Origin: a virus
Strand: one strand, 5' to 3'
DNA: 64,000 nt
IMG/VR virus record: IMGVR_UViG_3300032288_005579
Part shown: piece after piece, positions 2,531-62,647 of the stretch
Position numbering within the stretch: position 1 is the stretch's first letter
Layout: each line of letters begins with the position of its first letter
Position numbers and translations under genes: made by a program
The notes under the pieces: model-generated
The model's input: the letters and a program-made list of their open reading frames with translations, nothing else
What the model was told of the DNA's origin: nothing
Databases searched by the model: none

Positions 2531-2583
2531 TTTGTTTTGACCGAGAACAACATATTTATTGCTAGAACAAACTAAAAAAACAA

Positions 2584-44887: not shown

Positions 44888-45096
44888 ATAAAGAAACTTT
44901 AGAGAATTGGTTATTGGGATTCGTTGCAGCATGCGGAGAAAATCCCCCCACAAAAGAACAGTGGATGACCCTTGTAGAAGCAGTAAAGTCATTACATAAA
45001 AGGGACTCAGTGATCCATCCACCTTCGTGGACTTACACAGGAACTCACACGGTAAATCACGCGTCAAAAGAAGAAAAAAAAATATTGAATGACTAA
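44884..45096 (+). CDS. Hypothetical protein
   Basis: ATG at 44884 overlaps the upstream stop. Confidence 0.55.
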   Translation: MNKETLENWLLGFVAACGENPPTKEQWMTLVEAVKSLHKRDSVIHPPSWTYTGTHTVNHASKEEKKILND

Positions 45097-46163: not shown

Positions 46164-47125
46164 AAACCGCTCTTATAACAGGAATAAACGGTCAGGACGG
46201 ATCATATCTAGCTGAACATCTATTGGATTTGGGGTACGAAGTTCATGGTATACTCAAAAGAAATTCTGTAGCTGAGAATCAAACCGCAAGATTGGATTCT
46301 ATTTACGATAGACTTAAACTCCAATACGCAGATCTAACTGACATATCTTCCCTTTATCGAGTAATCAATAAGGTTAAACCTCACGAAATATATAATCTAG
46401 CAGCCCAATCTCACGTGAGGATATCATTCGATCAACCCCTATATACGGCACATTCTACAGGATTGGGAGCTTTGAATCTTTTAGAGGCCGTAAAAGAGGC
46501 AGACACAAACATAAAAGTTTATCAAGCCTCTTCGTCAGAGATGTTTGGAAATAGCATAGATCCTGACGGATACCAAAGAGAAACCACTGCCATGAACCCA
46601 GTGTCTCCTTACGGTTGCGCTAAGGTATTCGCTTACAACATATCTAGAAACTACAGGAACTCTTACGGTATGTTTGTGTCTAACGGCATACTGTTCAATC
46701 ACGAGTCTCCAAGAAGGGGAACTAACTTCGTTACAAACAAGATCTGCAAAGAGGCAGTAAAAATAAAATTACGCATTTCGGATAAACTTTCATTGGGTAA
46801 TCTAGACGCATCCAGAGACTGGGGTCACGCCAAGGATTATGTCAAAGCAATGCATTTGATCCTGCAATTGGATAAACCAGACGATTTTGTATGCGCAACA
46901 GGACAGTCCCACACAGTTAGAGATTTGTGCGAATTTGCCTTCTCTGAATTGGGATTGGACTATAGAAACTACGTTGTGCAGGAAGAGAAGTACCTTAGAC
47001 CAGAAGAATTGAATTTCTTAAAGGGGGATTCCTCAAAATTAAAAGCTGCAACCGGTTGGACACTCGAGTATTCTTTTGAACAAATGATACGAGAAATGTT
47101 AAATTATTGGCTACGTAAAGTATGA
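46160..47125 (+). CDS. gmd: GDP-mannose 4,6-dehydratase
   Basis: ALITGINGQDGSYLAE, NLAAQSHV, QASSSEMFG, SPYGCAK, NHESPRRG, RDWGHAKDY. Confidence 0.95.
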   Translation: MKTALITGINGQDGSYLAEHLLDLGYEVHGILKRNSVAENQTARLDSIYDRLKLQYADLTDISSLYRVINKVKPHEIYNLAAQSHVRISFDQPLYTAHSTGLGALNLLEAVKEADTNIKVYQASSSEMFGNSIDPDGYQRETTAMNPVSPYGCAKVFAYNISRNYRNSYGMFVSNGILFNHESPRRGTNFVTNKICKEAVKIKLRISDKLSLGNLDASRDWGHAKDYVKAMHLILQLDKPDDFVCATGQSHTVRDLCEFAFSELGLDYRNYVVQEEKYLRPEELNFLKGDSSKLKAATGWTLEYSFEQMIREMLNYWLRKV

Positions 47126-48030
47126 ATAAAGTTGTTATTACAGGAGGAAACGGATTAGTCGGAAAGTACCTTCAGCGTCATATGGATGGTGTGTTCTTGG
47201 GCTCAAAAGACTTTGATCTCACTATTGAGAGCGAAGTATCTAAAATGTATCAAGTGCACCGACCTGATGTTGTTATACATCTAGCAGCTAGAGTCGGTGG
47301 TATAATGGATAACATAAATAAACCATTTCCATACTATGAAGATAACGTGTTAATGAACAGTTATGTAATGAAGTACGCGAGATTGAACGATGTAAAAAAG
47401 TTCATCGGCGTGTTATCCACTTGCGCTTATCCAGATATAGCACCATCTACTTATCCTATGGTAGAAGAGGATTTGCATCACGGAATACCTAACGAAAATA
47501 ATTACGGATACGGATATTCAAAGAGAATGTTGGCGGTTCATATAGACATCGCTAGAAAACAGGGTTTGAATTATTCATACATATTGCCCTCAAATTTATA
47601 TGGAGAATTTGAACACGGAGATTCTAATAGGCGTCACTTTGTTGGTGCGCTTTTAGAAAAAATACGAGAAGCAAAGAAGAACAACCATAATAAGATCACG
47701 TTGTTCGGAGATGGATCTCCATTAAGGCAGTTTACTTTTGCAGAAGATGTTGCTAAAATACTGAAACTAATAGTAGAAAAGGACGTCAAAGAAAATATAA
47801 ATGTGAGCACGGAAGAGAACATGACGATAGATGAAATGGCGAGAAAAGCTTTGATAGCGACAGATTCTAGGAACTTAAGTATAGAATACGATACAACTAA
47901 ACCAAATGGACAGTATAGAAAAGATGTTTCCATAAAAAAGTTGAAACGCATTTTTCCAGAGTACGAATTTACTTCGTATATTGATGGTATTAGAAAAACA
48001 TACAAAGCAATAAATAAAAATCATGAATGA
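47122..48030 (+). CDS. fcl: GDP-L-fucose synthase
   Basis: HLAARVGGI, STCAYP, YGYSKR, PSNLYG, GDGSPLRQF, KPNGQYRK. Confidence 0.88.
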   Translation: MNKVVITGGNGLVGKYLQRHMDGVFLGSKDFDLTIESEVSKMYQVHRPDVVIHLAARVGGIMDNINKPFPYYEDNVLMNSYVMKYARLNDVKKFIGVLSTCAYPDIAPSTYPMVEEDLHHGIPNENNYGYGYSKRMLAVHIDIARKQGLNYSYILPSNLYGEFEHGDSNRRHFVGALLEKIREAKKNNHNKITLFGDGSPLRQFTFAEDVAKILKLIVEKDVKENINVSTEENMTIDEMARKALIATDSRNLSIEYDTTKPNGQYRKDVSIKKLKRIFPEYEFTSYIDGIRKTYKAINKNHE

Positions 48031-49372
48031 CAAAAAACAACAAATTCTCGATCTAATAAGCGAGTACGTAAAGGAAAAGAAAACCAATAAAACATGGAAA
48101 CCTGGAGAGGATTGGGTACAGTATTCGGGTCCCTACTTTGACGATAAGGAATTCACCAATGCAGTAGACGCTCTTTTGAAAGAGTGGTTTATATTAGGAG
48201 AAAAAGGTCGTGAATTTGAAAAACGCTTTGCTCCCCATTTGGGCAAGAAAGATGGCGTACTAGTTAACTCAGGTAGCTCCGCGAACTTGTTGATGGTGTC
48301 TGTATTGAAGACAAAGCGAGGAGGAAAATTACCGGTAGGATCCAAGTTCATAACTCCTGTGGTTTGTTTCCCCACAACAATCAACCCTCTAATCCAAAAC
48401 GGTTATAAACCCGTGTTTGTGGATGTTACTCTTCCAAACCTCAATCTAAATTTAGATAAGGTAGAAGACATTTTGGAGAAGGACACGAACAGAGAAATCA
48501 AGGGCATTATATTTGCCCACGTATTGGGAAATCCTCCTGATATGGATAGACTTATTTCCATAATCAAAAAGTACGAGCTCATCTACTTAGAAGACTGCTG
48601 CGATGCGCTAGGTTCTACATGGGAAGGTAAACCTCTAGGTTCATTCGGAGACATAGCTACATGCTCGTTCTTCCCAGCCCACCACATGACCATGGGAGAG
48701 GGAGGATTCGTAGCCATAAACAGTGCAAAAATGAGAATGGCATTGGCTTCTTTACGAGATTGGGGTCGTGCGTGCTATTGTAACACCGTGAAACCTGGAA
48801 ATGTAATGGATGGTACAGGTTGTGGATGTAGATTCAACACGTGGTTTAAGGGACATGACGATATCGTTTTCGATCACAGATACGTGTTCGACGAAATTGG
48901 ATACAATGTAAAGCCCACTGAAATGCAAGCGGCTATGGGATTGGCACAATTGGATAAACTGGAATTGATGCACAGCAGAAGAAAACATAACTTCAACAGA
49001 CTCAAATCCATATTTAGTAAGTATGAAAACTACTTCTATATCCCGTATGCATCAGATAAGGCCGACGTATCTTGGTTTGGATACTTAGTAACTTTAAAGG
49101 ATAATGTACCCTTCAAAAAATCCGATCTTGTGGATTTTATGGAAGCTGCTAAAATACAAACCAGATCTTATTTTACGGGTAATGCACTACTGCATCCCGC
49201 TTACGAAGAGCAAGCTAAAGAGTACGAAGATCCGAGAAATCAATTTCCAGTTGCTACTAAAACTACCATCGATACCTTCTTTTTAGGTGTTTATCCAGGA
49301 ATAACTGATGAACAGCTGGATTACATAGAAAATACATTGGATAATTTCATGAAGGATCACAATAAAAAGTAA
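48023..49372 (+). CDS. rfbH: CDP-4-keto-6-deoxyglucose 3-dehydrase E1 (PMP, Fe-S)
   Basis: VNSGSSANL, EDCCDALG, FFPAHHMTMGEGG (His instead of Lys), WGRACYC...CGCRF Fe-S motif, SWFG. Confidence 0.9.
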   Translation: MNDKKQQILDLISEYVKEKKTNKTWKPGEDWVQYSGPYFDDKEFTNAVDALLKEWFILGEKGREFEKRFAPHLGKKDGVLVNSGSSANLLMVSVLKTKRGGKLPVGSKFITPVVCFPTTINPLIQNGYKPVFVDVTLPNLNLNLDKVEDILEKDTNREIKGIIFAHVLGNPPDMDRLISIIKKYELIYLEDCCDALGSTWEGKPLGSFGDIATCSFFPAHHMTMGEGGFVAINSAKMRMALASLRDWGRACYCNTVKPGNVMDGTGCGCRFNTWFKGHDDIVFDHRYVFDEIGYNVKPTEMQAAMGLAQLDKLELMHSRRKHNFNRLKSIFSKYENYFYIPYASDKADVSWFGYLVTLKDNVPFKKSDLVDFMEAAKIQTRSYFTGNALLHPAYEEQAKEYEDPRNQFPVATKTTIDTFFLGVYPGITDEQLDYIENTLDNFMKDHNKK

Positions 49373-49378
49373 AATAGT

Positions 49379-50371
49379 GTGGGATACATATCATTTCCTC
49401 GAATAGGTTACTCAGGTAATTTAGGATCCCAGTTATCCCAATACTCTGCTCTTTATGCTGTGGCCAAGAATAATGGTTTAGATGTGGTATTTCCTGAGTC
49501 TAGCGTATACGATGGATGGGGACATAAGTTTGCTGCCGTATTCAATATGGAAACAAATTATATATCTGACAAGTGTTTCTCTAGTCTATCTCTTCCTTAT
49601 TTAGGATTGGCCGAGTACAATAGACGGGCGAACGGTATACCTCAGTCACAAAACTTTTCTGAATCCGTTACCCTTAATTGGGAATTGTTGCCTGTCAATA
49701 GTAGACATGTGACTAAAGATAGATTATTGAACTTAGATAAAAATAAAAACTACTGGGTGGATGAGTTATTCCACATGTTTGAGGATTACCATCCCAATTA
49801 CAGAGAGGAAATTCTATCTTGGAGATGGAATAAGGACAAGTACGCGGCTGCGAAAAAAGATTACGATAAGATAAAAGTAGAAGGAAAAGAGTTGGTTTCT
49901 ATCCATGTTAGAAGAGGCGATTATTTATCTCATGATCACTTCTGTAAATTGGATCAAGATTATTATAATGAAGCGCTATCGTATTTTACTGAAGACATGG
50001 ACAAATACCACTTTGTCGTATTCTCTAATGATATACCGTGGTGCAAAGAGAACCTTATAGAGGGCAACAAAGTTACTTTCGTAGATCCGCCCGGACAGGA
50101 TATAGTTCAAATAAAGAGATCAGATTACCCCATAGAAATGTCTGATGACGCTAGTGATCTTATCCTCATGAGTATGTGTGATCACAACATAATAGCTAAT
50201 AGTAGTTTTAGTTGGTGGGCTGCGTATACAAACTCCAATCCCAATAAAAAAGTAATCTATCCGCAAAATTACGTCAAATGGAATAGTCCAGTCGCCATAG
50301 ATTTAAATGACGGTAAATATGCTGTACAAGATTTGGGTTGGATACCTGTAAAAAACACTGATAAAGTATGA
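49379..50371 (+). CDS. alpha-1,2-fucosyltransferase-like (GT11)
   Basis: GNLGSQL, SIHVRRGDY, VFSNDI.WCK, IIANSSFSWWAAY. Confidence 0.88.
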   Translation: MGYISFPRIGYSGNLGSQLSQYSALYAVAKNNGLDVVFPESSVYDGWGHKFAAVFNMETNYISDKCFSSLSLPYLGLAEYNRRANGIPQSQNFSESVTLNWELLPVNSRHVTKDRLLNLDKNKNYWVDELFHMFEDYHPNYREEILSWRWNKDKYAAAKKDYDKIKVEGKELVSIHVRRGDYLSHDHFCKLDQDYYNEALSYFTEDMDKYHFVVFSNDIPWCKENLIEGNKVTFVDPPGQDIVQIKRSDYPIEMSDDASDLILMSMCDHNIIANSSFSWWAAYTNSNPNKKVIYPQNYVKWNSPVAIDLNDGKYAVQDLGWIPVKNTDKV

Positions 50372-51351
50372 GAATAGCGTTTCTAACTGAGATGAATTTT
50401 AAGGGAAAGGTTCCCGATACTCATACTAATATGAGAACAGAGTTTGCTTGGATGCATGCTCTAGACGCTGATCACTATCACATAAGATCTTACGAAGGCG
50501 TTGTAAACTACGATCACGTATTCATCATATTCCCAAAAGGAATGGTCTATTTGAATGCTATTGCAGTTAAAATGTCAGAAGACAGGAATCCAGTGTCCGA
50601 TTTATTAGATTCAAACCTCATAAATTCTTTAAAGTCTAACAACGGCAAAGTCCATTTCGTTCAAGAGGGTCCTCACTGGTTGTGGAACGATTACGAAATG
50701 ATTGATCAAATAAATTTCTACAATCTTCTTGTACAGTGCGATTCTATCTTCTGTCACAACGAGTACGATAGAGCTTACTACTTAGGATTTTTTCCTGAAA
50801 AGGAGGTTAATGTTATTCCGTCTCTGATGATAGAGACCCTATTGAAACCTATAGTTCCTAAAGCTGATAATAAGACCATAATTGGAGGAAATTTTGCAAG
50901 ATGGTATGGAGGGTTCGAATCGTACACAATAGCCAGTATTTTTGAAATTCCTATATGGGTTCAAGATTCTCATGCCAAAAGATACCAAGAACCGATGATG
51001 GAAAATTTATTCCACTTGAATAGGGTGGTTTGGATAGATTGGATGAGAACTCTTTCTTCGTTTAAATACGCAGTGCATCTTATGCCAACAGTCGCAGCTG
51101 GAACTTTCTCTTTGAACTGTGCCTACTTTGGAATTCCATGCATAGGTAACGAAAAGGTGGATACCCAAAGATTGTGCCACCCTGAATTATCGGTAGATGT
51201 CGCTGATTTGAATAAAGCGAGAACTTTGGCCAAACAACTCAAAGACGATATACATTTTTACGAAGAGTGTTCAAAGAGGTCGAAAGAGAATTACGAACGT
51301 TACTATTCTGTAAAAATATGGAATGAGACACTAACTAAAGCTTTGCAATGA
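50368..51351 (+). CDS. Putative GT-B glycosyltransferase
   Basis: C-terminal LMPTVAAGTFSLNCAYFGIPCIG resembles a degenerate GT-B motif; operon context. Confidence 0.55.
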   Translation: MRIAFLTEMNFKGKVPDTHTNMRTEFAWMHALDADHYHIRSYEGVVNYDHVFIIFPKGMVYLNAIAVKMSEDRNPVSDLLDSNLINSLKSNNGKVHFVQEGPHWLWNDYEMIDQINFYNLLVQCDSIFCHNEYDRAYYLGFFPEKEVNVIPSLMIETLLKPIVPKADNKTIIGGNFARWYGGFESYTIASIFEIPIWVQDSHAKRYQEPMMENLFHLNRVVWIDWMRTLSSFKYAVHLMPTVAAGTFSLNCAYFGIPCIGNEKVDTQRLCHPELSVDVADLNKARTLAKQLKDDIHFYEECSKRSKENYERYYSVKIWNETLTKALQ

Positions 51352-53069
51352 AGAACAACAAATTCATAATAATGGTCGCGTCTTATAACAATGAAGATTG
51401 GGTCGAATACAACATAGTCAGCATACTAAACCAAACATATGATAACTATCACGTGTATTACGTGGACGATTGCTCTACCGACAAAACTAATCAGATCGTT
51501 ACAGATCTAACTAAAGGAAATGATAAATTCACCATCATCAGAAACGATAAGAATTTAGGAGCAGATGGCGGTGCGATATACAACCACATCAGGATGTTCG
51601 ATTCACTAGAAGACGATGAGATTTGCGTGCAAATGTCAGGTGACGATTGGTTATTCGATGAAAACGTGTTGGAGAAATTGAACAACTTCTATAACGAAAA
51701 GGATGTATGGATGACATACGGCCAGTTTTATGTCTATAACGGAAGTTGGCAATTAGAAAAAGCAAATCCACAGAATACGCGCTACGATGATTTTATTCAT
51801 AGGCATAAACTGTATAGAAAAGATCTTTGGAGAGCGGGACATCTATTAACTACACGGGGATTTTTGGCTAAGAAGATAGATGTGAGGGACATTCAAACTT
51901 TGGAAGATGGAAAGTGGTACTATCATGCGCCTGATCTTGCTTTGACCTATCCATTCTTGGAGATGTGTCCTAAAGACAAGATAGGCGTAGTAGATTTTCC
52001 AACCTATGTGTGGAACGGCAGCGAGAAATGTCACGAAAGAACAGTCAAAAGACAAACAGCAGAAAATCATAAATACGAAGTAGAGATACGCAATAGAAAA
52101 CACTACAAAGAGGGTCTATCCGGGGAAAAACTCCCTCAGATAAACGTGTATTACGATTACATGGAATTGACCAACATCCCAAAAGAGTTCACTTACTGCT
52201 ATAAAGTAGAAGAACTTGGAGAGTACGATATGGTGTTGATCATGGATTGGGAGATTCCAAATTGGATAGACGGAAAGATAAAAGTAAAAGAGGGCGTACC
52301 GATAGTAGCAAGATTGGCGGAACACAGCAGTTATTGGAAGTACGAGATATACGAAAAGGTATTAAATAACTACGATAAGTTTGATGTCATATTCACCCAC
52401 GACAAACGATTACTAGAACAACTGCCTAATGCGAGATTCATGCCAGCCGCAGATTGCATAGTGTTCAATAGGATCCCAAACCCAGTCAAAGGATACGAGC
52501 CCTTTAAGTGCGATCCTAAAAATGAGAACTACGAACTTCCCGATGACGTGTTCCAAATATACCAAAAATCAAAGCTCGTATCTGTTATGGCATCAGATAA
52601 AGCGTGGTTGCCTGGACACGTACAGAGATTGAAGTTTCTAGATAAGGTCAAGCACCGTGTTGACGTTTACGGAACCTGTCAAAAGGTTCTATTTGGTAAA
52701 GAGACTAGAAGGGAAACCAAGTTCCTCAGCCTAAGAGACTACGCCTTCAGCATAGCTATAGAAAACCTCAGCCATGAAGTCGATGACTATTATTTCACAG
52801 AAAAGATCGTGGATTGCTTTACTACAGGAACAGTTCCCATTTATTACGGGTGTCCTAATATAGGAAAATTCTTTGATACCAAAGGCATATTGATATTTGA
52901 GAACGATCAACAGTTAAGTGACATCTTAGATAACTTGAGTATGGATCTGTACTATTCGATGATGGATTCTATAAAGCACAACTACGAAGTGAGTATGAAG
53001 ATGAACTTGACAAATGATTTGGCATACAAGCATTACTTTAAAGACGTAATAGACAATTATAAAAAATGA
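51348..53069 (+). CDS. GT2 domain fused to an alpha-1,3-fucosyltransferase-like (GT10) domain
   Basis: N: ASYNNE, VDDCSTD, SGDDWL. C: YAFSIAIEN...YFTEKIVDCF.TGTVPIYYG. Confidence 0.8.
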   Translation: MKNNKFIIMVASYNNEDWVEYNIVSILNQTYDNYHVYYVDDCSTDKTNQIVTDLTKGNDKFTIIRNDKNLGADGGAIYNHIRMFDSLEDDEICVQMSGDDWLFDENVLEKLNNFYNEKDVWMTYGQFYVYNGSWQLEKANPQNTRYDDFIHRHKLYRKDLWRAGHLLTTRGFLAKKIDVRDIQTLEDGKWYYHAPDLALTYPFLEMCPKDKIGVVDFPTYVWNGSEKCHERTVKRQTAENHKYEVEIRNRKHYKEGLSGEKLPQINVYYDYMELTNIPKEFTYCYKVEELGEYDMVLIMDWEIPNWIDGKIKVKEGVPIVARLAEHSSYWKYEIYEKVLNNYDKFDVIFTHDKRLLEQLPNARFMPAADCIVFNRIPNPVKGYEPFKCDPKNENYELPDDVFQIYQKSKLVSVMASDKAWLPGHVQRLKFLDKVKHRVDVYGTCQKVLFGKETRRETKFLSLRDYAFSIAIENLSHEVDDYYFTEKIVDCFTTGTVPIYYGCPNIGKFFDTKGILIFENDQQLSDILDNLSMDLYYSMMDSIKHNYEVSMKMNLTNDLAYKHYFKDVIDNYKK

Positions 53070-54112
53070 AAACAATTATTGTAACAGGATCTGGCGGCCT
53101 AATAGGCAGAGAGACAACAGAATTCTTTCTGAAGAAGGGATTCAGGGTCATAGGTATTGACAACAATATGAGACGATACTTTTTTGGAGAAGACGGATCA
53201 GTATCATCGAACATAGAGTCTATTTCAAAGATGTCTAACTATGTGCATAAAGCCATAGACATAAGAAATTACGAAGATTTGGAAAACCTGTTCTCTGAAT
53301 ATAATTCAGACATAGATTGCATAATACACGCAGCAGCTCAACCATCGCACGATTGGGCAGCTAAAGAGCCATTCACTGATTTTCATGTGAATGCAACTTC
53401 TACTATAAACTTGTTAGAACTGACTAGAAAGTATTGCGGCAATGCGACATTCATATTCATGTCAACCAATAAAGTCTACGGTGATAATCCTAATTACTTA
53501 TCCCTGTTAGAGACAGAGACACGATACGAACTTCCAGAAATTCACCCGTATTACGATGGTTTGAACGAATCATTCTCTATAGATAATACTAAGCACAGTC
53601 TTTTTGGCTGTTCTAAACTATCTGCTGATGTATATGTGCAAGAATACGGTCGTTATTTTGGTATAAAGACTACAATTTTTAGAGGCGGGTGTTTAACAGG
53701 ATCTAAACACAAAGGCGCAGAACTTCACGGATTCTTAAATTATCTAGTTAAGTGCAATCTAGAAGGTCGCACGTACAATCTATTCGGATACAAAGGAAAG
53801 CAAGTAAGGGATAATATCCACTCCTCGGATCTAGTGAACGCTTTTTGGCACGTATACAATAATCCCAAAGTCGGAGAGGTTTATAACATTGGAGGTTCTA
53901 GGCATTCAAACTGTTCTATATTAGAAGCGATTGAAAAGATAGAAGGCATGACTAGTAAAAAAATGTCTTTGAATTACGTTGATCAAAACAGATCAGGAGA
54001 TCATATATGGTGGATATCAGACATAAGTAAATTTAAGAAGGATTACCCCGAATGGCATTTGACATATACTATAGACGATATCATACAAGAGATAATCAAA
54101 AACATAGGCTGA
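53066..54112 (+). CDS. rfbE: CDP-paratose 2-epimerase (tyvelose epimerase)-like SDR
   Basis: GSGGLIG, AAQPSHD, STNKVYG, FGCSKLSAD, RGGCLTG, GKQVRD. Confidence 0.8.
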   Translation: MKTIIVTGSGGLIGRETTEFFLKKGFRVIGIDNNMRRYFFGEDGSVSSNIESISKMSNYVHKAIDIRNYEDLENLFSEYNSDIDCIIHAAAQPSHDWAAKEPFTDFHVNATSTINLLELTRKYCGNATFIFMSTNKVYGDNPNYLSLLETETRYELPEIHPYYDGLNESFSIDNTKHSLFGCSKLSADVYVQEYGRYFGIKTTIFRGGCLTGSKHKGAELHGFLNYLVKCNLEGRTYNLFGYKGKQVRDNIHSSDLVNAFWHVYNNPKVGEVYNIGGSRHSNCSILEAIEKIEGMTSKKMSLNYVDQNRSGDHIWWISDISKFKKDYPEWHLTYTIDDIIQEIIKNIG

Positions 54113-54113
54113 T

Positions 54114-54740
54114 ATGTACTATTCTCAATTTCAACAGGATCAATTTCTAAATGAAAATGTGTTTCAAAATTTCTCAAATGGATTTTTTGTTGACATAGGC
54201 GCATATGACGGAATTACGCAAGGCAGCAACTCTCTCTTCTTTGAAGAATTGGGTTGGAGTGGAGTATGCATAGAGCCCAATCCAACACTATTCAAGAGAC
54301 TGAAGGAGAATAGAAAATGCGCTTGTCTAAACTATGCTGTGTCAGATGTTGTGGGAGAAGAGGAATTTATGCTTATAAACGGGCCTAATACTTTAGGAGG
54401 TCTTACTAAAAATTACGACTCTTCGAATCTCAAAGCTTTTGAGAATGATTTGAAACATAATAATTACACTTACGAATACATAAAAGTAAAGACCGAAAAG
54501 TTCAATAACATAATAAATCAAAAAAGGATAGATTATCTTTCTATAGACGTGGAAGGAAACGAATTGAACATTCTGAAAACTATAGACTTTGATAGTTATG
54601 ATATTAGAGTTATGACTATAGAAAGCAATAATTTTGGTGATAGAATACTAGAATTCTTTTCTGATAAGCCGTATACACTAATTAATAGACTAGGATGCGA
54701 TGATGTTTACGTAAAGAACACTATAATACTCACTGTGTAA
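54114..54740 (+). CDS. FkbM-family methyltransferase
   Basis: FVDIGAYDG, CIEPNP, SIDVEGNE. Confidence 0.88.
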   Translation: MYYSQFQQDQFLNENVFQNFSNGFFVDIGAYDGITQGSNSLFFEELGWSGVCIEPNPTLFKRLKENRKCACLNYAVSDVVGEEEFMLINGPNTLGGLTKNYDSSNLKAFENDLKHNNYTYEYIKVKTEKFNNIINQKRIDYLSIDVEGNELNILKTIDFDSYDIRVMTIESNNFGDRILEFFSDKPYTLINRLGCDDVYVKNTIILTV

Positions 54741-54760
54741 CAATTAAATAAAAGAAAGAT

Positions 54761-55735
54761 ATGAAAAAAGTAGTATATGTAACAGGTTGTTTTGGTTTCA
54801 TAGGATCCTATGTTACTAGAGCGTGTTTAGAAAAAGGATGGTACGTTATAGGTGTAGATAAATGCACTTATGCCTCCAACGAAGAATTGGCTTGGGAGTG
54901 GGCATCAAAATACACTGACAACTTCATGTTTCTGAGAGAAGACATCAACGATTTAAAGTTCTTGTACGAATGTGACTACGTCATAAATACCGCAGCTGAA
55001 ACCCATGTTGGCAATTCTATTGTTAAGAGTGAAGAGTTTGTGAAATCAAACATACAAGGCGTTCACAACTTACTAGAGCTAATTAGGAATTATAGAGCCG
55101 AATCCAACCATGTTCCTACATTACTTCACTTTTCAACTGATGAAGTGTATGGAGATATAGATGAAGGTTCACACACAGAAAAAGATCTGTTAAAACCCTC
55201 CAATCCCTACTCAGCTACAAAAGCCGCAGCTGACATGTTGATATTGGCTTGGGCAAGAACGTATGAATTACCCTACGTGATAGTTAGGCCCACAAATAAC
55301 TACGGTGCTGGACAGTACGTGGAGAAGTTAATACCAAAAACTTGTAAACATTTGGGTTTAGAAAGAAGAATACCTCTTCACAATGGAGGAAAACCTGTCA
55401 GAACTTGGTTGAATGTTAAAGACACTGCTAGCGCAATAATAAAAATAATAGAGAGCAAAGCAGTTAACCAGATATACAACATATCTGGAGGATTTGAACA
55501 AACCAATCTGGAAACAGTTAGACAGGTAATAAAAGCATATAACGGGGACGATCTAAAATCCAGTACGTCTAATGTAGAAAAGTATTTAGACCTATCTTAT
55601 AAGAGACCCGGTATGGATGTTAGATATTCCTTGGATGACTCTAAAATCAGATCACTAGGTTGGGAACCCAAAGCCATTTTCGAGGAAGAACTTAAAGAGA
55701 TCGTCGCTTATTATAAGGGTAAATTCATATGGTAA
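54761..55735 (+). CDS. rfbB: dTDP-glucose 4,6-dehydratase-like
   Basis: AAETHV..S, HFSTDEVYG, PSNPYSATKAA, TNNYG..QYVEKLIP, RPG.DVRYSLD. Confidence 0.88.
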   Translation: MKKVVYVTGCFGFIGSYVTRACLEKGWYVIGVDKCTYASNEELAWEWASKYTDNFMFLREDINDLKFLYECDYVINTAAETHVGNSIVKSEEFVKSNIQGVHNLLELIRNYRAESNHVPTLLHFSTDEVYGDIDEGSHTEKDLLKPSNPYSATKAAADMLILAWARTYELPYVIVRPTNNYGAGQYVEKLIPKTCKHLGLERRIPLHNGGKPVRTWLNVKDTASAIIKIIESKAVNQIYNISGGFEQTNLETVRQVIKAYNGDDLKSSTSNVEKYLDLSYKRPGMDVRYSLDDSKIRSLGWEPKAIFEEELKEIVAYYKGKFIW

Positions 55736-56688
55736 AACCCAAATTAGTCATATCGAACATGTATAGAGCGAAGAACAAATACGCCTTCTTCGCCATGCAC
55801 CAAGCCATAACGAAACTACCAGAGTTGGATATTGAATTCCACATTTTGTGGGATGATTACGCGTATGAAGATTCTTGGACCAAAAAGATAAATGAACTTG
55901 GATGTAAGATAGTTCCTTATACTAAAAAACAATTAGACGAATACTGTATAGGTCTTGGAGTGCCTCAATCTAAAATAGATCAATTCAAGAATTTTGGAGC
56001 CATCTATTTCATAATACATGCCCACTATTTGTACAGCCATAAAATCACAGATTACTATTTGATCTATGACGATGACATATACTTCAAAGACGATTTGCAA
56101 GAACTGAAGCACTGCCTAATCAATAAAATACCCTGCTTAATCGCAGAACCCATGAACAGTTATTGCGACAAAGTAATGGCGAACACGCTTTTTGATTTGT
56201 ATCCGGGAGCCAAAGATTATTATATTGCAATAAATCCCCAGATTCTGGGATTCAATGCTGGTTTTCAAGGAATAAGCTTAGATATGTACGAAGACTTCCT
56301 TGATCCTCAGTATTTTAATTACTTACTGGGAATTTTTAACTATAACGGCATATACGACGAAAATGGAAAAGAGATAACGGGTCCGAAAAGAACAATGATA
56401 GATACTCAGCAACAGTCTTTTTTCGGGATTATGAATATCATAAGGTCTAAAACCACTCCCCACATATTGAATCCCAGTGAATACTTTGTGTGTCCTAATT
56501 GGGGCACTCATCCAATTTATGGACAATTGGATCCCACAAATGAATACGAGGGCTGGGATATAAATATGAAATCAAAGGTGGTTCACTTCATAGGGCACAC
56601 CAAATTTAACGGAGTGTATTACGGTAAACCGAAAGTCTTTTATAAATTAGTTGACGAATACTTAAACGCCCATGGAATATACGAATAA
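55729..56688 (+). CDS. Putative GT-A (GT8-like) glycosyltransferase
   Basis: YDDDI, FNAGF, QQS, HFIG motifs. Confidence 0.55.
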   Translation: MVKPKLVISNMYRAKNKYAFFAMHQAITKLPELDIEFHILWDDYAYEDSWTKKINELGCKIVPYTKKQLDEYCIGLGVPQSKIDQFKNFGAIYFIIHAHYLYSHKITDYYLIYDDDIYFKDDLQELKHCLINKIPCLIAEPMNSYCDKVMANTLFDLYPGAKDYYIAINPQILGFNAGFQGISLDMYEDFLDPQYFNYLLGIFNYNGIYDENGKEITGPKRTMIDTQQQSFFGIMNIIRSKTTPHILNPSEYFVCPNWGTHPIYGQLDPTNEYEGWDINMKSKVVHFIGHTKFNGVYYGKPKVFYKLVDEYLNAHGIYE

Positions 56689-58465
56689 GAAGCTTAGCGA
56701 TATTATAGCAGAATTTCTAAAACATTTGGAGATTGATACGGTTTTTGGAATCATAGGATCAGCTAATTCCCACATATTTGACTCTATACAAAAACTTGGT
56801 TATACAAGAATCATAAACACGCACCACGAACAATCAGCAGTGATGGCGATGGGTGCATACTATAGAGCATCAGGAAAATTATCTGCGGCTATAGTAACAG
56901 CTGGCGGAGGATCTACTAACGCCGTAACAGGAGTCGTAAGTAACTGGGCCGATTCCATACCAGGATTGATCATATCAGGTCAAGAAGCAAGTAATTACGT
57001 AAGAGATTATAGTAAGCTTAGAATGTATGGAACCCAAGGCCTGAACATGGTTAAAATGGTTTCAGACGTTACTAAGTACGCGGTTCAAATAGACGAACAC
57101 AGTTCTATCCAAGACGAGCTTGAAAAGGCTTTAAAAATATCTGTATCAGATAGACCTGGACCCTGTTGGATAGACGTACCCTTTAACATGCAATCCAAGA
57201 TCGTACAAACTAGAGATTGGAAGAATGATATCTCCAGAAGAAAGCTGGTTTTCGTGCAAGATATATTAGACGAAATAAGAAAGAGCGAAAGACCCGTTGT
57301 ATTAGGGGGAAACGGAGTCAGGTTGTCCAACTCAAAAGGCATATTCAATAGGTTTGTAAAGGCGGCAAAAATCCCCACCTTCCTATCATGGTCAGGCATC
57401 GATCTATTGAGTCACGATAATCCCTACTTTTACGGAAGATTCGGTCTATACGGTCAACGAGCTGCTAACTTCATAGTTCAGAACGCGGACTTAGTTCTTG
57501 TGTTAGGTAGTCGATTGGCTCTTCCCCACGTGGGATACGACTTCTCTCAGTTCGCAAGAGGTGCTAAGATCATCGTAGTAGACATTGACGAATTGGAGGC
57601 TAAGAAACATGACAGAGTGTACCACGTTTACGAAGATTGCAAAGATGTTTTGCAGACTTTGATGGAAGAACCGTGGAAAATTTTTGGAGAAAAACCCAAC
57701 TGGATTCAGTACTGTAATTCCATTAGATCGAAATACCCACTAGTTGATGATTATCACAAAGATAACGGATATATAAATTCCTATAAGTTCATAGACAGAA
57801 TGTCCGATTATTTGAAGGACGATCACATCGTTGTTACAGATATGGGTACAGCTCTGCTAAGCGGACACCAAACTATAAAACTTAAAGAGAACCAAACAAT
57901 GTTCACTTCTTTGGGACTCGGAGAAATGGGATACGGATTACCTGGTGCATTAGGCGCCGCACTAGCTTGTCCAAACAAACCAGTTCTTTGTATGAATTGT
58001 GATGGAGGTATGATGATGAATTTACAAGAGGCTCATACAATCATAGAGAACAATCTACCGGTGAAGATCATTATCTTCAACAATGACGGGTATCTCATGA
58101 TCAAGCATACGCAAAAGATGTTGTTCAAGAACAATTACGTTAGCGTAGATAAGAGAACGGGTTTGGGATTACCGGACTTTAGTAAAGTCATGCCGGCTTT
58201 CGGATATGAATACGCAGACTTAAGGTCGTGGGAAGATTTTGATGATAAGATGAAATGGTTCATAGACAATCCCAATGCGGCCGTCCTAGAAGTGTTCATG
58301 GACCCAGAACAGGATTTTATACCCAAAGTAAAAGGAGTATTGAAAGAGGATTTGACCATACTTGCTCCACCGATAGAAGAGATGTCTCCGCTTCTGTCTA
58401 TCGAACAAGTGAAGGACAGCATGATTGTACCTCTAAGTGAAAAGTCAAAACAGATAAAGAGATGA
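56672..58465 (+). CDS. Thiamine-diphosphate-dependent carboligase (acetolactate synthase / YerE-like)
   Basis: HHEQSAVMA, TAGGGSTN, GLGEMGYGLP, CDGGMMMNLQE...NN ThDP motif. Confidence 0.88.
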   Translation: MEYTNKKLSDIIAEFLKHLEIDTVFGIIGSANSHIFDSIQKLGYTRIINTHHEQSAVMAMGAYYRASGKLSAAIVTAGGGSTNAVTGVVSNWADSIPGLIISGQEASNYVRDYSKLRMYGTQGLNMVKMVSDVTKYAVQIDEHSSIQDELEKALKISVSDRPGPCWIDVPFNMQSKIVQTRDWKNDISRRKLVFVQDILDEIRKSERPVVLGGNGVRLSNSKGIFNRFVKAAKIPTFLSWSGIDLLSHDNPYFYGRFGLYGQRAANFIVQNADLVLVLGSRLALPHVGYDFSQFARGAKIIVVDIDELEAKKHDRVYHVYEDCKDVLQTLMEEPWKIFGEKPNWIQYCNSIRSKYPLVDDYHKDNGYINSYKFIDRMSDYLKDDHIVVTDMGTALLSGHQTIKLKENQTMFTSLGLGEMGYGLPGALGAALACPNKPVLCMNCDGGMMMNLQEAHTIIENNLPVKIIIFNNDGYLMIKHTQKMLFKNNYVSVDKRTGLGLPDFSKVMPAFGYEYADLRSWEDFDDKMKWFIDNPNAAVLEVFMDPEQDFIPKVKGVLKEDLTILAPPIEEMSPLLSIEQVKDSMIVPLSEKSKQIKR

Positions 58466-59328
58466 TCAGAGTAGGAATAATAGGGACTGGAAATATAGGA
58501 GCGGATCTTTTGTTGAAGGTACTAAAGACTGACTACATAAAGCCTGTCATATTTGCAGGAAGGCGCTTAGACTCCGATGGTATGAGAATAGCCAAAGAGC
58601 GCGGAGTTCCAGTAACTGATAAGGGCATACAGTACTTCATAGACAACCCAAAGTGTTGCGATGTCGTGTATGATTGTACGAACGCTGATGACGCAAGAGA
58701 ACACGCTAATGTATTCTCAGAACAGGGGATAAAAGTCATAGACCTTACGCCTTCTAAGGTAGGAGTCATGTGTTCGCCAAGCATAAATCCCAGTGCAGTA
58801 CAGTTGAACGAGAATGTCAACATGATAACTTGCGGAGGACAGTCTGCAGTGCCCATGTTGAATCTGATTTCTAAGTATTGTAAAGATTTAAGATATGTGG
58901 AGATGGTATCCCAGATCTCATCCAATAGTGCAGGGATGGCGACAAGGATAAACATTGATTCTTACATACACACAACAGAGAGCGCGATCAGGCAGTTTAC
59001 AGGATGCGAAAACTGCAAGGTCATATTGAACCTGAACCCAGCAGAACCCTGCGTGGACATGCAAACCACCATGTTTCTACAGTTTAAAGATATTGATTTC
59101 AACAAACTGGTGGAGGAGATCTATAAGAAAGTTAAGGAGTTGCAGCGATACATTCCGCATTACGAATTAGTACTTCCTCCAGTTATAAACGACGACGTAT
59201 TAGTGTTGAGCATAAAAGTTAGGGGATCAGGTGACTATTTGCCAGAATACGCAGGAAACCTTGACGTTATAAATTGCGCAGCTATAGAATTAACTAGAAT
59301 ACTAAATGAAACAGATAATCATAACTGA
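58462..59328 (+). CDS. mhpF: Acetaldehyde dehydrogenase (acylating)
   Basis: IIGTGNIG, DCTNA, IDLTP, NMITCGGQ, ATRINID, LPEYAGNLDVINCAA. Confidence 0.92.
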   Translation: MIRVGIIGTGNIGADLLLKVLKTDYIKPVIFAGRRLDSDGMRIAKERGVPVTDKGIQYFIDNPKCCDVVYDCTNADDAREHANVFSEQGIKVIDLTPSKVGVMCSPSINPSAVQLNENVNMITCGGQSAVPMLNLISKYCKDLRYVEMVSQISSNSAGMATRINIDSYIHTTESAIRQFTGCENCKVILNLNPAEPCVDMQTTMFLQFKDIDFNKLVEEIYKKVKELQRYIPHYELVLPPVINDDVLVLSIKVRGSGDYLPEYAGNLDVINCAAIELTRILNETDNHN

Positions 59329-60304
59329 CTCGTCTTTGAGGGACGGTAATCACGCCGTTAAACACAGTCTAGACTTCCACAGCGTAAAAAGATACTGTAA
59401 AGCCGCAGAGGAGTGCGGTATACCCATTGTAGAAGTCGGTCATGGAAACGGATTAGGAGCATCTTCCTTACTAATAGGAAAATCAAAGTATGCAGATAGA
59501 GAACTCCTAAGTTCTGCAAGAGAGATTTTAGTGAATAGTAAATTGGGAATACACATCATTCCCGGTATTGCTACTATAAAGAAAGACATAGAACCCGCCA
59601 TAGAGATAGGAGTAGATGTGTACAGAGTCGCCACTCATTGCACTGAAGCCACGTTGTCGAAGTCTCACATAGAATATCTCAAGTCAAAAAATAAAACTGT
59701 TTTTGGTGTTCTCATGATGTCTGCATTAGCAGACACTAAGACTCTATTAGATAACGCGAAGATCATGGAAGAATACGGAGCCGAAGCCGTCATAATCATG
59801 GATTCTACTGGAACTTATTTACCGCACGATGTGAAGGAGAGGATTTCGGCTCTCAAGAATGGATTGAATATTGATATTGGATTTCATGCGCATGATAACT
59901 TGGGATTGGCAACAGCAAATTCCCTTGTAGCGGCAGAAGAAGGAGCTAAATACATAGACGCCTGCATAAGAGGATTCGGTGCGGGAGCGGGCAATGCTCA
60001 TCTTGAAATGATAGTACCGGTATTGGAAAAGAGCGGATTCAAACTCAACGTGGATTTTAAGAGGATCATAATAGAAGCAGACAGCGTTATGGAATATCTG
60101 ATACCCTCAGCTCCCGTATCCACTCCTGTGAATGTATTGACCGGCTTAAATCGATTGTTCTCAGGTTTCGAAAAACCCATAATCAAAGCATCTAAACTTT
60201 ATGGAGTTGAATACTCTTCGTTGATATTTGAATTGGGAAATAGAAAGCTGGTTGCAGGACAAGAGGATCTGATATTAGAGGTTGCGCAAAAATTAAAGAA
60301 ATGA
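59306..60304 (+). CDS. mhpE: 4-hydroxy-2-oxovalerate aldolase
   Basis: DSSLRDGNH, EVGHGNGLG, RVATHCTE, MDSTG, FHAHDNLG, GAGAGN, LVAGQEDLI. Confidence 0.92.
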   Translation: MKQIIITDSSLRDGNHAVKHSLDFHSVKRYCKAAEECGIPIVEVGHGNGLGASSLLIGKSKYADRELLSSAREILVNSKLGIHIIPGIATIKKDIEPAIEIGVDVYRVATHCTEATLSKSHIEYLKSKNKTVFGVLMMSALADTKTLLDNAKIMEEYGAEAVIIMDSTGTYLPHDVKERISALKNGLNIDIGFHAHDNLGLATANSLVAAEEGAKYIDACIRGFGAGAGNAHLEMIVPVLEKSGFKLNVDFKRIIIEADSVMEYLIPSAPVSTPVNVLTGLNRLFSGFEKPIIKASKLYGVEYSSLIFELGNRKLVAGQEDLILEVAQKLKK

Positions 60305-61215
60305 ACATACTCATTACAGGCGGCAACGGATTTCTTGGATCTAATTTAGTTAGAAGATTTTTGTTTGAGAATCACAGTGTATACGTTGTATCGAACAATA
60401 CCAATAACATAACTGATGTATTAGATCGTGTTAAGTATAGTAAAGGTCACACCAAAGATTTACCCGATCTTAAAGACGAGATAAGAGAATTCTCGCCTGA
60501 CGCAGTGCTCCACCTCGGTTGGTCAGGAGGCAATAGGCATATAGACGTAAACGATCTAAAACAATTTCAAGAGAATATCGAACCGGGAATTCATTTTCTA
60601 AAGATACTAGGAGATCTTCCTATTCCTCCAAATTTCTATGGATTCGGAAGCTTTTCTGAATACGGTAATTACAATCGTAAAATATCAGAGACGGATCAAG
60701 AGGATCCGATAAATCTATATGGATTGTCCAAGTACACGTTCAAAAACTATAGTAAGTTGATATGTAGCATGTATGATATGGACTGGTCTTGGATCAGACC
60801 ATGTTACACCTATGGTCCTTATGATGTGGATACAAGATTGATTCCTTTACTTATCAAAAAGTTTTCTAATCACGAACACGTAATCTTAGACGATTGCGAA
60901 AAGAGACTAGACTATTTGTATGTAGACGATTTTGTAAACTACGTGTATACACTAGTGGTCAAAAAGAAGGTAGGAACATTCAACGTGTGTTCTGGAAAAG
61001 AATACTCTCTAAAAGATGTTATACTCAAAATCAAGAAGCTTACTAATTCCAAAAGCGAAATTACATTTGATCCTAGTTTGAATAGAACATACGTCTCTAA
61101 ATATATCTGTGGAAACAATAGTAAGATAGTAAAAGCAACTAGCACTTCACCTAAAGTAAGTATAGAAGAAGGACTCATGAATACCATAAATCACTATAAA
61201 CAAAAAATAAAATGA
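60301..61215 (+). CDS. NAD-dependent epimerase/reductase (SDR)
   Basis: TGGNGFLG, YGLSK, RPCYTYGP, DYLYVDD. Confidence 0.85.
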   Translation: MNILITGGNGFLGSNLVRRFLFENHSVYVVSNNTNNITDVLDRVKYSKGHTKDLPDLKDEIREFSPDAVLHLGWSGGNRHIDVNDLKQFQENIEPGIHFLKILGDLPIPPNFYGFGSFSEYGNYNRKISETDQEDPINLYGLSKYTFKNYSKLICSMYDMDWSWIRPCYTYGPYDVDTRLIPLLIKKFSNHEHVILDDCEKRLDYLYVDDFVNYVYTLVVKKKVGTFNVCSGKEYSLKDVILKIKKLTNSKSEITFDPSLNRTYVSKYICGNNSKIVKATSTSPKVSIEEGLMNTINHYKQKIK

Positions 61216-61850
61216 AAAACTTAGTAGTTGAAAAAGAGGGCGGTTGGATATGGCCGGCTTTGGATCAAATTAGTTGGGAATACCAGAACGAATTTCAAGA
61301 TTTGGCTCAACATGTTTTGCCTCACGTAAAAGACAGAAGAGTGATGATTCAAGCGGGAGGAAACTGCGGATTCATGCTAAGTAAGTTTGTTGGAGAGTTT
61401 GAGCACGTGTATACGTTTGAACCAGATCCTGTCAATTTCTACTGTCTGAATCAAAATTTGCAAAACGAGAATGTTATAAAATTACAAGCGTGCTTAGGAA
61501 AAGACAGAAATCCTGTGAGAACTCAACAACTATTTAGAGAAGGAAAACCGAATGATACGGGGGGAGTGCACGTATCAGGAGCAGGATATGTTCCATCTAT
61601 TCTAATAGACGATTTGAATTTACCTTACTGCGATTTGATACAGTTAGACGTTGAGGGATACGAATACAACGCTATTCTAGGCGGTCTTCATACCATTAAA
61701 ACCCATAAACCAGTTTTGTGCGTAGAGTTCTGTGAAAAGTGGTTAAATAAATACGATTCAGACTCAAACAAACTCCTTGATTTGCTTAATTCGATGGGAT
61801 ACTCTATGGTAGAAGAACACGGAGTCGATAAGATCTTTACTTATAAATAG
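61212..61850 (+). CDS. FkbM-family methyltransferase
   Basis: IQAGGNCG, YTFEPDP, QLDVEGYE. Confidence 0.85.
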   Translation: MKNLVVEKEGGWIWPALDQISWEYQNEFQDLAQHVLPHVKDRRVMIQAGGNCGFMLSKFVGEFEHVYTFEPDPVNFYCLNQNLQNENVIKLQACLGKDRNPVRTQQLFREGKPNDTGGVHVSGAGYVPSILIDDLNLPYCDLIQLDVEGYEYNAILGGLHTIKTHKPVLCVEFCEKWLNKYDSDSNKLLDLLNSMGYSMVEEHGVDKIFTYK

Positions 61851-61858
61851 TCCAATCT

Positions 61859-62647
61859 ATGAAAGTACTTGTGACTGGAGCTAATGGATACATAGGGAAA
61901 AGCCTGTGTATAAATTTGTCTTCGAAATATGAGATAACTGCTATAACCAGAAAAGAGGTAGATCTTACGGATTTTCAAGCTGTGAGTGAATACTTCAAAG
62001 ACAAGTATTTTGATGTGGTTATTCACTGTGCTATAAGCGGTGGACGTAGATTGCAAGAAGACGGAATATCGGTTTTAGATGATAACATAAAGATGTTCTA
62101 CAATCTAGAACACAACAAAAATCACTTCGGAAGGTTCATAAACTTCGGATCGGGCGCAGAGATATATCATAAGAACAAGTATTATGGCCTTAGTAAGAGT
62201 GTTATAAACCAATCAATAAGAACAAAGGAAAAATTCTACAACGTTAGGATATTCGCGGTGTTCGATCAAAACGAATTAGACACCAGATTCATAAAGACTT
62301 GCATAACGAATTATCTTAATAGACAGGCCATAGTCATACACGCAGATAAGCACATGGATTTTTTCTATATGAAAGATCTAATAACTGTTGTAGATTACTA
62401 CATAAGCAATGAAGATCCTCCATTTAAAGAGTTCAACTGCAGTTATGGAAAACCTATAACCCTTAAACAAATTGCGTATCTCATAAATCACCTAGAAAAT
62501 CATAAAGTACCAGTGATAGTAGAGTCCCAATCCATGGAAGTAGATTACATATCGCTGACAACCCAAAGAATTCTTGGATTAGATTACATAGGATTAGAGA
62601 GCGGCATAATAGAGACATATAACAATCTTACAAATGAAAAAAATTAG
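61859..62647 (+). CDS. NAD-dependent epimerase/reductase (SDR)
   Basis: TGANGYIG, GSGAE, YGLSK, DFFYMKD. Confidence 0.82.
   Translation: MKVLVTGANGYIGKSLCINLSSKYEITAITRKEVDLTDFQAVSEYFKDKYFDVVIHCAISGGRRLQEDGISVLDDNIKMFYNLEHNKNHFGRFINFGSGAEIYHKNKYYGLSKSVINQSIRTKEKFYNVRIFAVFDQNELDTRFIKTCITNYLNRQAIVIHADKHMDFFYMKDLITVVDYYISNEDPPFKEFNCSYGKPITLKQIAYLINHLENHKVPVIVESQSMEVDYISLTTQRILGLDYIGLESGIIETYNNLTNEKN

Follow-up and report, generated by a model that had tools for sequence, protein, structure and literature searches.

The 64,000-nucleotide stretch of viral DNA analysed here, called the window below, covers bases 4629-68628 of the 183,411-bp IMG/VR virus record IMGVR_UViG_3300032288_005579 (CheckV 100% complete). 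At window positions ~41896-63920 it holds a 22-kb sugar island, which probably (we put the probability at roughly 0.7) encodes a virus-adapted pathway of the erwiniose type. Its predicted product is a 3,6-dideoxyhexose, activated as a nucleotide sugar, with a branch of four carbons at C4. The island comprises 21 open reading frames (ORFs), all on the + strand, which overlap by 4-23 nt or lie at most 20 nt apart, bar one gap of 432 nt; the genes are, by prediction, translationally coupled. The same record, referred to as the phage, also encodes a tail sheath, a tape measure protein, DnaB helicase, ribonucleotide reductase, a family-A polymerase (PolA) and GroEL.

The precedent comes from Pectobacterium atrosepticum, in which Steitz et al. 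(2022) identified ErwE, ErwF, ErwI and ErwJ and demonstrated the scheme in part (PMC9306805). In the route proposed there, acetyl-CoA is converted to acetaldehyde, acetaldehyde and pyruvate give 4-hydroxy-2-oxopentanoate (4-hydroxy-2-oxovalerate), an enzyme dependent on thiamine diphosphate (ThDP) transfers a C4 unit to a 4-keto-3,6-dideoxy sugar, and a short-chain dehydrogenase/reductase (SDR) carries out a final reduction. ErwE couples 4-hydroxy-2-oxopentanoate to a ketone, rejects pyruvate and selects the R enantiomer (PMC9306805).

In the phage, host nucleoside diphosphate (NDP)-glucose would be converted to NDP-4-keto-6-deoxyglucose by an RmlB-like dehydratase (gene at 54761). An E1-type dehydrase (48023), which would use an iron-sulfur cluster, pyridoxamine 5'-phosphate (PMP) and electrons from a host reductase, would then remove the 3-hydroxyl group and give NDP-4-keto-3,6-dideoxyglucose. 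In parallel, an acylating dehydrogenase of the ErwJ type (58462) would turn acetyl-CoA into acetaldehyde, and an aldolase of the ErwI type (59306) would join acetaldehyde to pyruvate, forming 4-hydroxy-2-oxopentanoate, probably 4R. The ThDP enzyme (56672) is predicted to decarboxylate this acid and to place a 3-hydroxybutanoyl unit on the C4 ketone; reduction of the branch ketone by an SDR, most likely one of 262 residues (SDR262), would yield a 4-C-(1,3-dihydroxybutyl) sugar. An earlier note on this DNA had proposed the heart of this route, with the dehydrogenase and aldolase (its MhpF/E) running backwards and the ThDP enzyme transferring the C4 unit. That proposal equals the scheme of PMC9306805 and is supported by the gene comparisons below; its logic is not new for bacteria.

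Likened by description, the erwiniose cluster of P. atrosepticum SCRI1043 and the phage island have the same four enzyme types (ThDP enzyme, reductase, aldolase and dehydrogenase) beside an E1 and a 4,6-dehydratase. They differ in gene order, the phage reductase following the aldolase, and in the dehydratase, which in the phage is RmlB-like and not of the CDP-glucose type. The phage cluster, which sits in a virus, lacks the cytidylyltransferase, E3 and flippase; in addition it has a pair of FkbM methyltransferases, an SDR resembling tyvelose epimerase and a module for GDP-sugars.

The ThDP enzyme and its relatives

The closest solved relative of the phage ThDP enzyme is JanthE of Janthinobacterium sp. 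HH01 (PDB 8RPH, 8RPI and 8RPJ). It scores 572 bits against 8RPH over 591 residues, compared with 242 bits for PpYerE (5AHK) and 235 bits for AHAS I (acetohydroxyacid synthase) of Escherichia coli (6lpi); as read by eye from the printed alignment, roughly half of its residues are identical to those of JanthE. The domains PF02776, PF00205 and PF02775 are all found above cut-off, and the catalytic Glu53 is invariant in an alignment of 30 ThDP enzymes. In the ThDP-binding motif, NCDGGMMMNLQE in the phage, CDG replaces GDG. Compared between the two enzymes, the motif reads CMNCDGGMMMNLQE in the phage and CLNCDGGMMMNLQE in JanthE. NCDGGMMMN is common to these two, to 75 of the 82 viral loci studied and to the five nearest bacterial loci; more distant members of the family carry GDG.

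JanthE, a YerE-like carboligase, accepts ketones, and its donors include 4-hydroxy-2-oxovalerate as well as pyruvate and C4-C6 oxo acids (PMC12188165). YerE/YerF of Yersinia pseudotuberculosis (yersiniose A) and PpYerE belong to the same family and share the type of acceptor, a 4-keto-3,6-dideoxy sugar from E1. In contrast to the phage enzyme, YerE makes a C2 branch from pyruvate, carries the GDG motif and lacks aldolase and dehydrogenase partners.

The best AHAS equivalog models of NCBIfam give 325 bits, against cut-offs of 538-738, and Pfam profile searches of the island detect no regulatory small subunit and no ilv gene, ilvC and ilvD included. We placed the enzyme by phylogeny relative to the YerE-like family and AHAS, a check of the kind that the earlier note had proposed. 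In a tree of 103 rows, the YerE-like family is split from the AHAS outgroup with an SH-aLRT (Shimodaira-Hasegawa-like approximate likelihood ratio test) support of 100, and the phage enzyme falls on the YerE-like side, where a clade of 23 rows (support 99) unites it with Pedobacter, Mucilaginibacter, Ca. Methylopumilus, Methylotenera and Oleiharenicola. On these comparisons the phage enzyme is YerE-like, of the JanthE type, and not an AHAS.

The same five genera provide its best bacterial matches in an alignment-based scan of 185,579 species representatives, at only 43-48% identity (45-48% for the nearest cellular homologues, in Pedobacter sp. PLR, Mucilaginibacter pedocola and Ca. Methylopumilus). 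Closer matches, at 68-78% identity, come from more than 100 metagenome proteins. In a larger tree, 71 of 80 viral copies, the phage enzyme among them, form a virus-only clade with support 100, which includes three contigs of giant-virus metagenome-assembled genomes (MAGs); JanthE lies outside it. Its sister clade unites the five bacteria with four viral contigs.

As a side observation, YerE-like matches at E <= 1e-90 occur in 6 of 400 genomes sampled from the class of a Pseudomonas sp. MAG (G008, Gammaproteobacteria), and none of them exceeds 38% identity. Compared with its frequency on viral contigs, the family is sparse in cells.

The aldolase, the dehydrogenase and their gene neighbourhoods

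The dehydrogenase gene overlaps the ThDP gene by 4 nt and is itself overlapped by the aldolase gene over 23 nt. The dehydrogenase retains the catalytic Cys in ITCGGQ, by comparison with PDB 7z3s, and the aldolase retains the RDGNH and HAH metal-binding and catalytic motifs. Both enzymes belong to the families of the catabolic pairs DmpFG, BphIJ and MhpEF, and the phage pair keeps the communication domain of DmpG together with the catalytic residues. Contrary to the catabolic pairs, it stands in a biosynthetic context; its flux is predicted to be reversed and its stereochemistry to be (4R).

We aligned the aldolase to PDB 8ih7, with an offset of 12 to BphI numbering. His83 occupies the position of BphI Leu87 and Phe285 that of BphI Tyr290. 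All 72 aldolases linked to a ThDP gene, viral and bacterial, have H or Y at position 87 and F, H or M at position 290, whereas the three catabolic controls (dmpG of Pseudomonas putida KF715, dmpG of pCAR1 and mhpE of E. coli) combine Leu and Tyr with the same catalytic motifs; all three adjoin meta-cleavage genes (hydratase, hydrolase). Wild-type BphI is strictly (4S); stereocontrol is lost with Y290F, and (4R) specificity results when Y290F is combined with L87N or L87W (PMC3962088). The residues thus suggest that the sugar-pathway aldolases are natural counterparts of the engineered (4R) BphI enzymes. The predicted (4R) selectivity fits the R preference of ErwE, and the presence of His83 and Phe285 instead of Leu and Tyr is a direct argument against a catabolic role. 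As a rule, His or Tyr at BphI position 87 and Phe, His or Met at 290 would separate biosynthetic from catabolic aldolases and predict that class II aldolases with (4R) selectivity exist in nature; such enzymes are of interest for biocatalysis.

The same signature occurs in a different setting on plasmid pSYMBR3459 of Paraburkholderia phenoliruptrix BR3459a (500185-505398). An ErwJ/ErwI-type pair there, with an aldolase 52% identical to that of the phage and the His/Phe residues, neighbours an SDR, a gene of the carboxymuconolactone-decarboxylase family and a ThDP-binding protein only 22% identical to the phage enzyme, with no deoxysugar genes nearby. This pair may put the (4R)-type aldolase to a further biosynthetic use.

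For bacterial neighbourhoods we used the best 80 YerE-like loci of the scan. Among the nearest, all five have the CDG motif, and each of the four with available flanks has ErwJ, ErwI and E1 within 10 kb, the ErwJ- and ErwI-type genes being 44-55% identical to those of the phage. An E1 homologue lies nearby in about 50 of the 80. The Pedobacter, Mucilaginibacter and Ca. Methylopumilus loci share the CDG motif and the aldolase signature with the phage and have E1 proteins 39-40% identical to its own. The Pedobacter locus, the only one annotated in detail, contains an E3-like reductase, RfbF (glucose-1-phosphate cytidylyltransferase), CDP-glucose 4,6-dehydratase (RfbG), an SDR, the ThDP enzyme, ErwJ, ErwI, a second SDR, RfbH and the flippase Wzx: a complete CDP pathway, for an O-antigen or capsule unit. 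Pectobacterium is absent from the best 80 loci.

On the viral side, an alignment-based scan of IMG/VR yielded 443 stretches, of which 82 loci were studied. CDG is present in 75 of them, ErwI in 67, ErwJ in 65, an RmlB-like dehydratase in 65, E1 in 64 and SDR262 in 60. A further SDR of 304 residues (SDR304) occurs in 35, usually together with the second FkbM methyltransferase (FkbM2), itself present in 28. Both ErwI and ErwJ are absent from all four viral loci of the GDG type. The predicted physiological donor of the JanthE-type CDG enzymes is 4-hydroxy-2-oxopentanoate.

Two viral records, G001 and G002, are syntenic with the phage on both flanks of the island. In both, E1 directly follows the first GT2 glycosyltransferase gene (GT2a), SDR262 follows the aldolase, and the genes for GDP-mannose 4,6-dehydratase (Gmd) and the Fcl-like protein are absent. 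Since E1 follows GT2a directly there, it belongs to a conserved core, and Gmd, the Fcl-like protein and GT11 are a separate, phage-specific GDP-sugar add-on. The conserved core consists of E1, the dehydratase, the GT8-like protein, the ThDP enzyme, ErwJ, ErwI, SDR262 and a GT2. In G001 and G002 the homologues of E1 are 53-54% identical, those of the GT8-like protein 65-67%, and those of the GT4-like 327-residue protein, encoded directly after E1, 64-67%.

A subgroup of seven IMG/VR loci (L098-L103 and L107) departs from this layout. It has a CDG-type ThDP enzyme, 57-59% identical to that of the phage, and homologues of SDR262 and GT2a, with no ErwI or ErwJ within 8 kb and only an E1-like protein free of iron-sulfur residues (32-34% identity). 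The donor acid of this subgroup may differ.

The GenBank phage collection contains no near DNA match, and its protein matches are only at the AHAS level, at most 30.5% identical and mostly from bacterial or contaminated records. A full-text literature search on 'erwiniose' returned nothing on viruses.

The acceptor sugar and competing explanations

The phage E1 scores 334 bits against the E1 structure 3bcx and 161-167 bits against ColD structures. His220 is invariant, and Cys193, Cys251, Cys253 and Cys267 are retained in a loop that is six residues longer. The cysteine spacing is C-X57-C-X1-C-X13-C; in the Yersinia E1, the corresponding last spacing is X7. The whole loop is absent in 34 of 100 E1 homologues, and the phage protein keeps it. 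The loop-less homologues, which include giant-virus-type contigs such as L111, are ColD-like, iron-sulfur-free dehydrases found in otherwise similar cassettes.

From its place after Gmd and the Fcl-like gene, E1 could have been read as a ColD enzyme for colitose. This candidate was rejected: the score is twice as high for the Yersinia E1, the iron-sulfur cysteines are present, and in relatives without Gmd and Fcl the gene directly follows GT2a.

The dehydratase at 54761 is of the dTDP-glucose type, with 292 bits for TIGR01181 against 69 for the CDP-type TIGR02622 and 232 bits for the dTDP-glucose 4,6-dehydratase structure 2hun. The 4,6-dehydratase of the earlier note is present, as an RmlB-like enzyme and not one of the CDP type. 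Of the enzymes that would supply CDP-4-keto-3,6-dideoxyglucose (RfbF, CDP-glucose 4,6-dehydratase, E1 and E3), the phage encodes only E1. Its whole genome contains neither a nucleotidyltransferase (PF00483 NTP_transferase, PF12804 NTP_transf_3) nor an E3 (PF00175, NAD_binding_1 of the ferredoxin-NADP reductase (FNR) type) or ferredoxin (PF00111, Fer2), so the host has to supply both the starting sugar and the electrons that E1 needs. Five further large viral records that carry the cassette likewise lack PF00175. A precedent would be SpnQ, a TDP-sugar 3-dehydrase that works with general ferredoxin/flavodoxin reductases. The 327-residue protein encoded after E1 was considered as a substitute for E3 and ruled out: it gives no FNR or ferredoxin signal, and its ESM Atlas neighbours are GT4-like.

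Several of these observations count against an erwiniose-type pathway. The dehydratase is of the dTDP type, whereas the characterised relatives of E1 use CDP-sugars, and in a genome that has no nucleotidyltransferase and no E3 a CDP-linked sugar is not established. Homology does not fix the length of the branch, since the promiscuous JanthE takes pyruvate as well. The ThDP enzyme is proposed as the ErwE counterpart from its enzyme type and context, having been compared with JanthE by sequence and with ErwE by description only. No SDR of the phage exceeds 26% identity to those of the Pedobacter cluster or is orthologous to them, so the putative ErwF role of SDR262 is argued from its conservation and position only. 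Furthermore, two SDRs follow the aldolase, and erwiniose requires one reduction. Finally, a branched-sugar product is known in no virus so far, and the stepwise route given here for the phage is predicted from its genes.

The best-placed alternative, improbable in our view, keeps the type of pathway and changes a substrate: the donor would be pyruvate, giving a C2 branch as in yersiniose, or another 2-oxo acid, or the acceptor would be another ketosugar, for instance GDP-4-keto-3,6-dideoxymannose made by Gmd and E1. The donor range of JanthE, the place of Gmd upstream of E1 in this phage and the viral subgroup whose CDG enzymes have no ErwI or ErwJ within 8 kb all speak for it. However, the ErwI and ErwJ genes adjoin the ThDP gene, are translationally coupled with it and co-occur in 65-67 of the 75 CDG loci; ErwE rejects pyruvate; and the syntenic relatives lack Gmd and retain the RmlB-like dehydratase and E1.

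Much less probable is a pathway that is incomplete or non-functional in the phage, as a decaying or inert acquisition. The profiles missing from the 100%-complete genome (PF00483, PF12804, PF00175 and PF00111) would agree with decay, but all ORFs are intact with their catalytic residues, and the E3-less, RmlB-type layout is kept at 50-83% identity across many viral contigs, five other large records lacking PF00175 as well and the virus-only clade counting 71 rows. An intact layout so conserved across viruses points to a working design that draws on its host, as the erwiniose-type pathway would.

Least likely is a set of auxiliary metabolic genes, an acetolactate synthase for branched-chain amino acids next to an aldehyde or aromatic catabolism of the DmpFG/MhpEF kind: the best NCBIfam names (acetolactate synthase large subunit), the JGI name 'acetolactate synthase' of relatives and a prasinovirus review in which viral genes named 'acetolactate synthase', 'acetaldehyde dehydrogenase' and 'oxovalerate aldolase' come under amino-acid and aldehyde metabolism (PMC5371798) suggest it. 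The earlier note had already judged such roles improbable. Against them, the ThDP enzyme stands far from AHAS in score and tree, the aldolase lacks the Leu87/Tyr290 pair of all three catabolic controls, the neighbourhood shows no small subunit, no ilvC/D and neither a hydratase nor a meta-cleavage gene, and the genes sit among deoxysugar and glycosyltransferase genes, to which they are coupled. If the erwiniose-type assignment is true, viral genes labelled in this way, including those of prasinoviruses, would be sugar-pathway genes.

Remaining island genes and the glycan acceptor

The 21 genes of the island are listed in Table 1. Those named in the earlier note, which placed the pathway at 48023-62647, are all intact + strand ORFs with family support. 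It had passed over GT11, the GT4-like gene, the GT2+GT10 fusion, the first FkbM gene (FkbM1) and the GT8-like gene in between, and its span misses the full extent of the island. Beyond 63920 there are only small non-sugar ORFs. Transmembrane-like segments are absent from all 21 proteins, and a scan for promoters and terminators gave nothing stronger than in shuffled sequences.

Table 1. Genes of the sugar island, with window coordinates and the principal evidence for each assignment.
Gene product	Position	Strand	Evidence
GT-B (GT4/GT1-type) glycosyltransferase, first island gene	41896..43341	+	Pfam Glycos_transf_1 E 2.3e-7; PHROG glycosyltransferase; 66% homologue at the same place in G002
Conserved 436-aa protein, weakly GT1-like	43346..44656	+	Pfam Glycos_transf_1 E 0.007, under cut-off; 57% homologue in G002
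Conserved 150-aa protein, no family	45089..45541	+	No Pfam match; 50-52% homologues in G001, G002
GT2 glycosyltransferase (GT2a)	45546..46163	+	Pfam PF00535 E 2.5e-16
GDP-mannose 4,6-dehydratase (Gmd), accessory insertion	46160..47125	+	TIGR01472 406 bits, slightly below cut-off 415
Fcl-like GDP-sugar epimerase/reductase, accessory insertion	47122..48030	+	NF047922 161 bits, cut-off 500
E1-type PMP/[2Fe-2S] NDP-4-keto-6-deoxyhexose 3-dehydrase (RfbH/DdhC-like)	48023..49372	+	NF011936 453 bits, cut-off 423
GT11 (alpha-1,2-fucosyltransferase family) glycosyltransferase	49379..50371	+	Pfam PF01531 E 2e-22
327-aa GT4-like glycosyltransferase (lead only)	50368..51351	+	No Pfam match; ESM Atlas clusters viral 'glycosyl transferase family 1' 0.99
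GT2 + GT10 (fucosyltransferase C-terminal) fusion, 573 aa	51348..53069	+	PF00535 E 4.5e-19; PF00852 E 1.2e-9
CDP-tyvelose 2-epimerase-like SDR	53066..54112	+	PDB 1orr 144 bits (best), 9rl0 141 bits
FkbM-family methyltransferase 1 (FkbM1)	54114..54740	+	Pfam PF05050 E 9e-22
RmlB-like NDP-glucose 4,6-dehydratase, viral cassette core	54761..55735	+	TIGR01181 292 bits; PDB 2hun 232 bits
319-aa GT8-like glycosyltransferase (lead only)	55729..56688	+	Pfam Glyco_transf_8 E 0.014, sub-threshold; Atlas neighbours GT8/viral 0.96-0.98
YerE-like ThDP carboligase, JanthE subclade; proposed ErwE counterpart	56672..58465	+	PDB 8rph 572 bits; three TPP domains
Acylating acetaldehyde dehydrogenase (ErwJ/DmpF family)	58462..59328	+	TIGR03215 307 bits, cut-off 282; PDB 7z3s 220 bits
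Class II pyruvate aldolase, 4-hydroxy-2-oxopentanoate (4-hydroxy-2-oxovalerate) (ErwI/DmpG family)	59306..60304	+	TIGR03217 328 bits, cut-off 286
304-aa extended SDR (SDR304), accessory reductase or epimerase	60301..61215	+	Pfam Epimerase E 1.5e-34; GxxGxxG, Y140xxxK
FkbM-family methyltransferase 2 (FkbM2)	61212..61850	+	Pfam PF05050 E 1.8e-13
262-aa RmlD-like SDR (SDR262), candidate side-chain ketoreductase (putative ErwF role)	61859..62647	+	Pfam Epimerase, RmlD_sub_bind; Y109xxxK
428-aa GT2 glycosyltransferase, last island gene	62634..63920	+	Pfam PF00535 E 6e-8; 50-51% homologues after SDR262 in G001/G002

SDR304, FkbM2, the tyvelose-epimerase-like SDR and FkbM1 would probably add epimerisation and O-methylation to the branched sugar in this phage. 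A SAM-dependent methyltransferase is present in the proposed branched-sugar cluster of R. palustris (PMC9306805). Gmd, the Fcl-like protein and GT11/GT10 would contribute a GDP-6-deoxyhexose branch to the glycan, into which the roughly eight soluble glycosyltransferases of the island would build the branched sugar.

Profile searches of the island detect no flippase, polymerase or polyprenyl-phosphate transferase; the Pedobacter locus has Wzx. Before the window, at genome positions 571-3088, lie two genes of the GT60 family (PF11397; 205 and 131 bits, well over cut-off), and large ORFs with 27-41% Thr+Ser occur at genome positions 172396-181072 and 121751-125332. Together they suggest a protein O-glycosylation system as the acceptor side for the island sugars. 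Self-glycosylation of the virion is a live hypothesis; the soluble transferases could equally act on lipid-linked intermediates of the host.

To our knowledge, acyl-branched higher-carbon sugars such as erwiniose, caryophyllose and gastriose are rare and known only from bacterial envelopes. Among uncultured phages and contigs of giant viruses the proposed branched-sugar module is common and has its own viral clade, and the cassette is present on giant-virus MAG contigs in IMG/VR. We tentatively propose, as a possibility rather than an expectation, that this virus-only erwiniose-type lineage, marked by an RmlB-like dehydratase, an iron-sulfur E1 without E3, a CDG ThDP enzyme and a (4R)-type aldolase, serves phages and giant viruses of algae in the synthesis of an O-methylated C10 branched deoxysugar, put here on the phage's own virion proteins and not on host lipopolysaccharide. 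The sugar would be drawn from host NDP-glucose, acetyl-CoA and pyruvate, and its target could be, for example, a fibre rich in Thr and Ser on which the two GT60 enzymes would act. The island thus raises the question of phages decorating themselves or their hosts with exotic sugars.

Three further observations concern other parts of the record and its relatives. The GT2+GT10 fusion has homologues with 49% identity in G002 and 79% in another viral locus, L149. A second small sugar module (L172) lies past the end of the window, at genome positions 84009-90632 (79381-86004 in window coordinates); it comprises a Methyltransf_24 protein, a 427-residue DegT/RfbH-like protein about 40% identical to the E1 of relatives, a 232-residue RmlD-like SDR and unannotated neighbours. 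After the tape-measure region, a 1626-residue ORF (window 13443-18323) has a C-terminal stretch that by eye resembles a domain of the N-acetylmuramoyl-L-alanine amidase or peptidoglycan recognition protein (PGRP) type (HHTAG...DIGAE-like).

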